From the NCBI RefSeq assembly GCF_056746865.1, contig NZ_CM163382.1: a stretch of 64,000 bases of DNA; one strand, written 5' to 3'. The first letter of the stretch is position 1. Every line of letters starts with the position of its first letter. This document shows positions 19,270-21,786 of this stretch, piece by piece. The notes beneath the pieces are model-generated. The model was not told the origin of the DNA, ran no database searches, and saw only the letters and a program-made list of their open reading frames with translations. The position numbers and the translations under genes were made by a program.

Positions 19270-21786
19270 TGCTATTAATTATATCTGCAATAGAATAAAA
19301 AATAGTGACGGATTTAGTTACTGTTATGAAAAACTATTGATATCTATTTCAAAGAATCTATTCAATCCAACTAGCAGCAACCCCATTACTCAGCGTGAAT
19401 ATCAACAATTGCTAAAATTCAGCGATTTTTTATCTAATTCCGAAAAAGAAGAAGATCGAAACCTAGCGTTAAAAATAATATCTGCAATATATGATCTTTA
19501 TAAAGAAGATCATAGTTGCCAATTACTGACAAAATCCATCCTTAGCAAACTTGGACTTTTTGCCGCTGAGGAAGTATTTACTGATAGTGATATAAAACTA
19601 CCATTATCCTATGAAATTTCTAGCAAATACAGAAAAATAAAAAATCGTATAAATGGTTCTGAGTACATATTCACTAATCGACAATGTGATGTGTACAGTG
19701 AGATCATGCAGAATGATTATTTTAGTTTTTCTGGCCCGACATCCCTCGGCAAATCATTCTTGATTAAACATGCTGCCGTTGATCTTATTGAAAATAATAA
19801 ACTAATTATTTTCATCCTTCCAACAAAAGCTTTATTAGAAGAATATCTAATTGACTTAAAATCTATACTCAATGAAAAAGGCGTGAAAGATATAAATGTA
19901 AGTAAATCCGTATCACAAGTTGACAAAGAAAGTAAAAATATATTGGTGTTTACACAAGAAAGATATAACTCATTTTTATATGAAAAGTCTTATGATAATA
20001 TGGATGTTGACTTTTTATTTATTGATGAAGCTCATAAAGTACTTGACAAAAAGAATAATAGAGCTATAACCCTATATAAAGTAATAAATAACTCCATAGA
20101 AAAATATGGTAAATTAAAAGTCATTTTTTCCTGCCCAGTAATTTCCAATCCTGATGTGTTTTTCAAAACATTTAATATACCGAATAGCAAGAAAACAAGA
20201 AGTTTATGTATTAAAGAATCTCCGGTAAATCAAGATTTGTACTTTGCAAATTATCAAGATAATAATTTTGTCTATTTTGATTCTATTTTAAATAAAAAAA
20301 TTAATTTCAATGTAAATAATGCTTATCAAAATGACTTTGAAATAATCAGAGGATTAGCACAACAATCCAAGTCAAACCTTATCTACGTATCAAGTAAAAC
20401 AGAATGTATAAGGAAATGTAACGAATTTCTAGAGTATTTAATTCGGGAAAAAAAGTATCGATAACAACAGACGATGAACTTATTTCCGAGTCAAAAATAA
20501 TCATGGAGTATATTCATAAAGATTTTAACTTAGCTCATGTATTAAAATATGGTATAGCATTTCACCATGGTTCACTACCTCTATTTATAAGAAAAAGAAT
20601 AGAGGACTTATATTCCAAAAAGAAAATAAATTTTATCTTTTGCACATCAACTTTACTTGAAGGGGTAAACTTACCCACAAAGAATGTTTTTATTTATCCA
20701 TTCCCTAAAAAGACTGTTAACGATGAAAAAAAATGCCGATTAGATTTTTGGAATCTGGCGGGGCGAGCTGGAAGATACAGAAGTGAATTGACTGGTAACA
20801 TAGTATGCCTGAATACCGCTGATAATAACTGGAGCAATGCAGATGCTAAAATTAGCCTAGGTAATAATGTTATTATAGAGGATGAAATAAACTCAACATT
20901 ACTACGCCATCAAAAAATATTAAATTATTTTGATGGTAAAGTTAAATCTCCAACTAATGACATTATTCAACTCAGCTCACTTATTCTATCAGAAATATTA
21001 ACTTATTTAGATAAAGGTTATATAGGGCGAATTTTAAATACCTTTAATGAAAAGATTCGGTTTATGCTTATTGATTCAGGAAAAAAACATCTTGATCGTA
21101 ATAGAATTATTGAAATAGATAAAGTGACCTTTTCAGAAAATCATATATTCTCAACATCCATACACGCTAAAGCCCAACTCAATGCTAAAAATAAAGAAAA
21201 ATTATTGCGTTCTTATAGCAGAGAGGATGTTTTCAATTATTTGGAAACAATAAATGAAATATATGGCCTGCGTAACACCCCTGATTCATTAAACCAACTG
21301 TGCATTGTGACTTATTCGTGGCTCATGGGTAATACGCTGAATTTATTAATATCAAACGCTATTAAATATAGCAATTCAGTTAGAGATCCTATTAGCTATA
21401 GATGGGTTAAATTTGATAAAACCAATCCTGATCATATAAACGCAAAAATAATGGAGGCAATACAATGCATTGAATCTGAAGTTACTTTTAAACTTGAAAC
21501 ATGTATTGCTCATTTTTATCAGCTATGTCAATCAATTCACGGCGATGAAAATGCAGGCATTAATCTTTCACCTTATTTAGAATATGGAACATTAGATACT
21601 AACATCATAGAACTTCAAGAGTTTGGTTTCTCTCGTTTAGCCGCAATTGAAATTATAGCAAAGCACAAAGAGTGTGTTACATTCAAAACAAATGAGACAT
21701 CATTGCAAATAAACACTCAGAAATTAAGAGCTAAGATTGAAAAGCACAGTGTAATTGATAGAGAACTATCATGGTTGAATTTATAA
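19262..21786 (+). CDS. SF2 DEAH-box helicase of about 840 aa, interrupted by a frameshift in an A7 tract (ORFs 19262..20464 and 20422/20503..21786)
   Basis: N-part has Walker A GPTSLGKSF and Walker B FLFIDEAHKV; C-part has GIAFHHGSLP, TSTLLEGVNLP and motif VI LAGRAGR. Frame 1 is open from 20422; inserting one A in the run at 20448..20454 joins ...EYLIREKK to VSITTDDELISESKIIMEYIHK. Confidence 0.75.

Follow-up and report, generated by a model that had tools for sequence, protein, structure and literature searches.

Results

Organization of the HamMAB locus

The DNA analysed here (hereafter the window: the whole stretch of 64,000 nucleotides from contig NZ_CM163382.1 of the NCBI RefSeq assembly GCF_056746865.1) belongs to an E. 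coli chromosome and contains a HamMAB (Hachiman-MBL) anti-phage system, whose genes are hamM, protease-hamA and hamB. The three genes lie in the same orientation, overlap, and form a low-GC part of an island integrated at ssrA. Two of them are frameshifted, each lacking one base of an 8-base homopolymer: hamB at a run of seven A (A7) and protease-hamA at a run of seven T (T7). Previous studies on HamMAB homologues have indicated that HamM is an MBL pronuclease, that HamA carries an N-terminal trypsin-like protease and that HamB is a helicase; all three activities are needed for defence, and over-expression of the system is toxic (10.1101/2025.07.28.667249, 10.1101/2025.09.03.673762, PMC13069673). 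According to the HamMAB literature, the canonical D-GExK nuclease motif of HamA has been lost in this family.

The first gene, hamM (16825..17811, + strand), is intact and encodes an MBL-fold pronuclease of 328 aa, as assigned by PADLOC, by NCBIfam and by its gene position in other genera. Its product matched the PADLOC MBL models LmuA, RTasMBL and Avs1a with E values from 2.9e-61 to 2.4e-35, and the NCBIfam Avs1a model with an E value of 3e-42. The same HamM accession (WP_000238828.1) is common to genomes with an intact and with a broken module. Two K-I-S motifs (NKIST and IKISS) are readable in the HamM translation, and these may be the two loops cleaved by the protease. The layout of a 328-aa MBL gene followed by genes for about 487 aa and about 840 aa is kept in the loci of Morganella, Yersinia and Shewanella. 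A scan of the HamMAB operon for promoters and terminators gave nothing above shuffled expectation.

The helicase gene hamB and its A7 run

The hamB gene is present in the window as two open reading frames (ORFs) on the + strand. The N-terminal half (19262..20464, frame 2, 400 aa) corresponds to the RecA1 domain, with the Walker A motif GPTSLGKS and the DEAH motif FIDEAHK in its translation, and is ended by the frameshift. The C-terminal part (20455..21786, frame 1) contains the RecA2 motifs IV-VI and the C-terminal domain; within it, the annotated ORF of 427 aa starts at the ATG at 20503 and ends at 21786, and the motifs TSTLLEGVNLP and AGRAGR can be read in its translation. The sequence 5′ of this ATG is CCGAGTCAAAAATAATC, and no Shine-Dalgarno sequence was found upstream of it. 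HamB would be expected as one uninterrupted polypeptide of about 830–870 aa, but in the window it is divided between these two ORFs.

The A run occupies exactly positions 20448–20454, in the context ...TTC GGG AAAAAAA GTA TCG ATA A...; positions 20445–20464 spell GGG AAAAAAA G TAT CGA TAA. The heptamer A_AAA_AAG is in phase, and the 0-frame stop follows two codons downstream. The last stop in frame 1 before this site is a TAA at 20419–20421, so that this frame can be read from 20422 onwards, and one added A (A7 to A8, as in the intact haplotype) restores a single HamB reading of 841 aa, ...EYLIREKKVSITTDDELISESKIIMEYIHKDF.... This intact 841-aa HamB is present in sister genomes. Such a run is not remarkable locally, since nine A/T runs of at least 7 bases occur in 6 kb of the island, where the GC content is 28–36%.

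Judged from their sequences, both ORFs are halves of one superfamily 2 (SF2) helicase, HamB. On the PADLOC HamB1 model PDLC00176 (845 positions) the N-terminal half covered positions 4–400 (E value 1e-89) and the C-terminal half positions 413–842 (E value 2.6e-92), and the full-length HamB matched chain B of the PDB entry 9wh1 (9wh1_B) with an E value of 5.8e-95. The homologues listed with a full-coverage match were each a single protein. Seventeen of them, from Vibrio, Aeromonas, Shewanella, Yersinia, Klebsiella, Acinetobacter, Bacillus and one archaeon, were aligned; they are 827–869 aa long, are 31–64% identical, and can be aligned with the fused reading straight through the junction; the SF2 motifs (Walker A, DEAH and IV–VI) are invariant. 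The 16 codons that follow the A run up to the ATG at 20503 (20455–20502) also encode residues that match the homologues. No conserved arrangement of separate N- and C-terminal helicase genes was found among the homologues listed or aligned. Because these homologues are single proteins that align continuously through the junction, the intact, single-gene hamB is the ancestral state.

The second frameshift, in protease-hamA

The middle gene encodes a trypsin-like domain fused to HamA, and its 5′ part (17804..19027, + strand) is cut to 407 aa by the T7 run at 19011..19017, which is T8 in the intact haplotype. The heptamer T_TTT_TTG is in phase here, and the site was located by alignment to the gene of strain A10 and others. 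In A10 the middle gene encodes 488 aa and extends into the start of hamB, whereas the window copy, which differs from it by a single T (T7 instead of T8 at 19011–19017), ends at 407 aa. Reconstruction with T8 gave a 488-aa protein of the WP_000087768.1 type, which ends in ...LINNYE and likewise overlaps the hamB start; it places the last 82 aa in an out-of-frame 3′ remnant at 19018..19269 (+ strand).

Known homologues of the protease-HamA protein are 482–497 aa long, and the triad H36/D90/S164 is invariant in their alignment. The window HamA is truncated at residue 405, and the tail lost from it (81–82 aa) holds the invariant residues P469, N471 and E475. Pfam, PADLOC, NCBIfam and single-sequence PDB searches did not identify the middle protein, which was reached only by a profile of 20 homologues. 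This profile matched 9wh1_A (‘HamA C-terminal domain-containing protein’) over 5–485 against 9–523, with an E value of 4.2e-17. Some homologues of the middle protein had marginal matches to Pfam Trypsin_2 and HamA, the best match to Pfam HamA being 8.4e-3 in one homologue. In Morganella and Yersinia the middle gene appeared to be disrupted (378 aa and 408 aa, respectively), but this was rejected, as it came from the start choice of the gene caller, and no stop interrupts either frame over its whole length.

The earlier note on this DNA, which was made from the letters alone, had described a single frameshift, in the A7 run at 20448..20454, that splits ORFs 19262..20464 and 20503..21786. It had also stated that frame 1 is open from 20422, that one inserted A fuses the two, and that they are halves of one SF2 helicase. 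On re-reading, the coordinates were exact, the 841-aa reading was obtained, and the two halves proved contiguous on one HamB model and unbroken in the alignment of 17 homologues. The A7 site therefore stands, but the T7 site at 19011–19017, upstream of it, had been missed.

Distribution and linkage of the alleles

Our survey covered 5,426 complete E. coli genomes, of which 131 (about 2.4%) have the locus. The comparison of A-tract length among relatives, which the earlier note had proposed, gave the exact A7 87-mer in 126 of these, the exact A8 88-mer in 4, and one noisy assembly. T8 was found only in the same 4 complete genomes that have A8. Among public assemblies, the 400-aa product that depends on A7 was present in 12,241 index blocks, mostly on contigs of 20–200 kb, which is the size of short-read contigs. 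Intact HamB was found in 357 index blocks and intact HamA in 413, again mostly on contigs of that size; the ratio of intact to broken is therefore about 3:97, as in the complete genomes.

We then read loci in the public assemblies, at 24 contigs per look-up. All 14 of the distinct intact loci read had T8, A8 and a T at position 17073, while all broken loci read had T7, A7 and a C at position 17073; this synonymous single-nucleotide polymorphism (SNP) on the + strand therefore marks the haplotype in all loci read. No reliable mixed or intermediate tract haplotype was found among the complete genomes and the public loci read. Over 5.2 kb, most of the broken loci do not differ at all (100% identity).

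When ten genomes were aligned over 32 kb, the 8-kb core flank had at most 1 SNP, and because of this the ten aligned carriers are one clonal lineage. At least one carrier is labelled ST69. What distinguishes the intact group in this alignment is 17073T, T8, A8 and usually 22688T, and intact and broken loci are two indels and one or two SNPs apart in 32 kb. Two intact loci have 22688C, and therefore the broken haplotype probably arose on a 22688C background. The four differences between broken and intact loci (17073, the T tract, the A tract and 22688) fall in 5.6 kb, and the 26 kb of flank are without shared ones. This clustering may be due to chance, or to a small recombination patch that brought in the broken segment.

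Further lesions were found in some carriers, namely an insertion of IS1, a deletion after which 18% of the locus remains, and an IS66 element upstream. CH4796 (locus L004), which is otherwise intact with A8 and T8, has an independent change of A5 to A4 in hamB, equivalent to window positions 20044–20048. This deletion, which splits hamB at another point, could be a true parallel inactivation or a mistake of assembly, as the record has other small indels.

Sequencing artefacts at the locus

One locus, L024, appeared to combine T8 with A7. Compared with an intact locus, it has five single-A deletions in runs of A5 to A8 and no substitutions; we rejected it as a mixed haplotype and treated it as an artefact of an old sequencing technology. 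A 217-aa HamM allele with T6 (L028 and L030), listed in 244 index blocks, was also rejected as further decay of the locus: it comes with extra homopolymer deletions and mainly on contigs of more than 1 Mb or less than 20 kb, and is probably the result of homopolymer under-calling in long reads. Single-base losses in the A8 and T7 runs at 16932–16939, 19011–19017 and 20726–20733 of some public assemblies likewise give rise to spurious protein variants, and their pattern and the contig sizes suggest under-calling specific to certain platforms.

Annotation of the fragments and neighbouring genes

Wherever we read the annotation of a complete genome, RefSeq/PGAP lists the fragments WP_001323186.1, WP_001323185.1 and WP_000087769.1 as ordinary proteins and not as pseudogenes. 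The names given to fragments are ‘DEAD/DEAH box helicase’, ‘helicase-related protein’ and ‘hypothetical protein’.

The ssrA gene and the integrase of the island lie at 7961..9737 (+ strand). The transfer-messenger RNA (tmRNA) gene lies at 7961–8323 (Rfam tmRNA, 292.8 bits) and the integrase gene at 8490–9737, the latter according to the RefSeq annotation of an identical locus. Directly 3′ of hamB is a gene for a repressor of the RstR/DicA-like helix-turn-helix type (21941–22420, − strand), whose annotated start varies from genome to genome (138, 158 or 159 aa). A DUF3883 or ‘NO VEIN domain’ protein (25917–27170, + strand) matched the PADLOC PD-T4-1 model with an E value of 1.7e-204; it is an apparently intact second defence gene, and sits in the same island among sorbitol-PTS and hxlAB sugar genes. 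Newer RefSeq annotation names the CBS-domain protein at 35197–36294 (− strand) a ‘CBS domain-containing anti-phage protein’, so it may be another defence gene of the island. At 37222–37338 (+ strand) Rfam recognised an ALIL pseudoknot (121.5 bits), which is a −1 frameshift stimulator of the IS3 family. It is flanked by a tyrosine-recombinase fragment (36648–37250, − strand) and a hypothetical gene (37611–38186), and no intact insertion sequence is annotated there. A tRNA gene (48697–48769, − strand) adjoins an IS5 copy (about 47017–47997) beyond the ypjA autotransporter and probably marks another island boundary.

Discussion

Probable inactivation of HamMAB in a clonal lineage

We consider A7, with high confidence, to be an old and clonally inherited lesion, which together with T7 forms a double pseudogenisation of HamMAB, rather than an assembly error or a phase switch. 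T7 and A7 each arose once and have been inherited stably since. Of the options named in the earlier note, a genuine inactivating mutation is the one supported.

According to the literature on homologues, HamB of an intact HamMAB system would sense DNA and hydrolyse ATP, by which the trypsin-like domain of HamA would be released. This protease would then cut two inhibitory loops of HamM and so unleash its DNase, leading to abortive infection. In the broken haplotype, replication slippage has turned T8 into T7 in protease-hamA and A8 into A7 in hamB; these two deletions leave HamA without its conserved last 81 aa and HamB severed between its two RecA domains. The haplotype data show a single origin of both deletions, on the branch that leads to the larger sub-lineage within one clonal group of E. 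coli, with stable vertical inheritance since then. The HamMAB system of the window is most likely dead, because the protease and the helicase were both essential in published work; loss of function is suggested by this essentiality together with the positions of the breaks. The additional lesions in some carriers are in keeping with selection that is relaxed or acts against HamMAB, an abortive-infection system with a cost, and we infer that the cost of HamMAB drove or permitted its loss. As a speculation, if HamB restrains the protease, a loss of hamB that came first could have selected for the lesion in hamA.

Several points weigh against this interpretation. The hamM gene is still intact, most carriers have one and the same sequence of the broken locus (100% identity), and the divergence is too small to demonstrate relaxed selection. 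The carriers are phylogenetically non-independent, and rare recombinant or reverted haplotypes could exist beyond the 24 contigs read per look-up. The slippery heptamers, in phase at both sites, might also yield traces of full-length protein, but we regard this as improbable.

Alternative explanations

Homopolymer under-calls do exist at this locus, as the L024 and L028/L030 records show, and A7 itself might be such an assembly or sequencing error for a true A8, as the earlier note had also allowed. However, A7 is common to 126 complete genomes that were sequenced in many laboratories and on many platforms, the protein that depends on it is found mostly on contigs of short-read size, unlike the artefact-type 217-aa HamM allele, and its complete linkage with the substitution at 17073 is beyond any homopolymer error. 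Population counts, the contig-size profile and the 17073 linkage thus exclude this option, to which we assign practically no probability. The same linkage bears on the idea that the A tract, through slipped-strand mispairing, switches HamB and with it the defence module on and off within populations. The tract is a homopolymer, A7 and A8 both occur in nature, HamMAB is costly or toxic when expressed, and BREX brxX/pglX is a precedent for a defence gene that varies in phase through a homopolymer (PMC6326788). In a contingency locus, tract length would vary independently of haplotype among close relatives, and one reversible tract change would restore function. What we found instead is two tract states that strictly follow the haplotype (A8, T8 and 17073T against A7, T7 and 17073C), with zero variation of the A tract among 126 A7 complete genomes, most of these being 100% identical over 5.2 kb. 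The sole locus with an apparent T8/A7 combination is an artefact, and because of the second lesion, in protease-hamA, the ON state needs two independent +1 events in two genes. Moreover, an A/T run of 7–8 bases makes a poor contingency tract in mismatch-repair-proficient E. coli. Because the tract states are haplotype-linked and two lesions are present, we do not regard the run as a phase switch, a role for which the chance is very slight; the suggestion of the earlier note, that a switchable helicase turns a costly module on and off, is thus not supported.

It could also be argued that the broken genes still give some product. If ribosomes shift by −1 at A_AAA_AAG and T_TTT_TTG, or if transcription slips there, a trickle of full-length HamB and HamA might be made; a toxic system would thereby be held at a minimal yet still useful level, and the deletions would then be ‘savior’ indels. 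GAA AAA AAG and ATT TTT TTG are indeed in-phase X_XXY_YYZ heptamers in the 0 frame, and a −1 slip at either of them gives exactly the A8 or T8 protein sequence; A_AAA_AAG ranks with the motifs of E. coli that are most prone to shifting (PMC4066793), and a compensated ‘savior’ indel is an existing concept (PMC5009743). But chance alone gives such a heptamer in two of the three phases of a 7-base run, and E. coli heptamers without stimulators reach at most about 10 times a background of 0.055% (PMC4066793). No stimulator was detected here: RNA folding downstream of the two tracts was no better than that of shuffled sequences (z-scores of 0.54 and 0.06), no Shine-Dalgarno-like element was present 10–14 nt upstream of the heptamers, and the Rfam scan gave no match at either tract, though it recognised the ALIL pseudoknot at 37222–37338 in the same window. 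Both HamB and HamA would need to be rescued, and the split is not conserved, since near-identical alleles have A8 and T8 and all homologues listed are single ORFs. We therefore consider such recoding unlikely. Of similarly low probability is the extended proposal that the two deletions are adaptive and not neutral decay, either as ‘savior’ indels that cut the expression of a toxic system several hundred-fold while leaving traces of full-length product, or because complete loss was itself selected and aided the roughly 30-fold numerical dominance of the broken haplotype within an E. coli lineage that is successful. The two halves of HamB might, alternatively, be translated separately and assemble into an active helicase; RefSeq annotates both as ordinary proteins, and the break lies between the two RecA-like domains. 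Yet the split is not seen among the homologues listed, the 16 codons of the conserved region at 20455–20502 would go missing, the ATG at 20503 is without a Shine-Dalgarno sequence, and the complex would be defective anyway with its partner hamA truncated too. The earlier note had named separate helicase genes as a possible conserved state, but the homologues are single genes, and a functional split helicase seems extremely improbable.

Implications

HamMAB at this locus is thus predicted to be non-functional in about 97% of its carriers, which include complete genomes and thousands of drafts, and the annotation of the fragments could mislead surveys of defence systems or domain-based hunts for ‘new’ split helicases. 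With the near-isogenic intact and broken pairs that exist in nature, it could be tested cleanly what HamMAB costs its native host and how it benefits it. The locus can also serve as a worked example of how a real homopolymer frameshift is told from an artefact and from phase variation, by haplotype linkage and a contig-size profile for each allele. No description of this hamB/protease-hamA allele was found in the searchable literature; the system belongs to HamMAB, a family already known, and the lesion is an ordinary homopolymer frameshift.

Comparison with known systems

The BREX/Pgl genes brxX-pglX and the phasevarion methyltransferases resemble the present case in that a homopolymer in an ORF sets the full-length product, here of a defence gene. 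In those phase-variable genes, however, the tract varies among relatives and within cultures, while here it is fixed in two states, each tied to a haplotype, and the gene next to it carries a second lesion. Programmed −1 sites at A_AAA_AAG, as in dnaX and the IS3/IS911 family, share with the hamB site the identical heptamer, the right phase and a nearby 0-frame stop. Unlike the dnaX and IS3 sites, the hamB site is without a stimulatory hairpin, a pseudoknot, an upstream Shine-Dalgarno sequence or a conserved split.

Canonical Hachiman (HamAB; PMC12278908) also pairs a Ski2/Hel308-like helicase of the HamB family with a partner of the HamA family, and has DNA sensing and a fitness cost in common with HamMAB. 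It differs from HamMAB, whose effector is the upstream MBL nuclease activated by proteolysis. The HamB studied here matched the canonical Hachiman HamB of ECOR31 (8vx9_B) with an E value of 1.9e-8 only.

The closest likeness is to the HamMAB systems described in the HamMAB papers, with which the locus shares the gene order (a 328-aa MBL protein, a protease-HamA fusion and HamB), the matches to the 9wh1 chains, the H/D/S triad, Walker A and DEAH. The HamMAB tested in published work includes one from K. pneumoniae, and the intact E. coli HamB is about 50% identical to a homologue from Klebsiella variicola, the nearest Klebsiella protein in our search. Liu-DS5, a HamMAB that comes from E. coli, acts against 52 of 70 phages on over-expression (PMC13069673). 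Unlike the published HamMAB systems, the copy in the window has frameshifts in two of its three genes.

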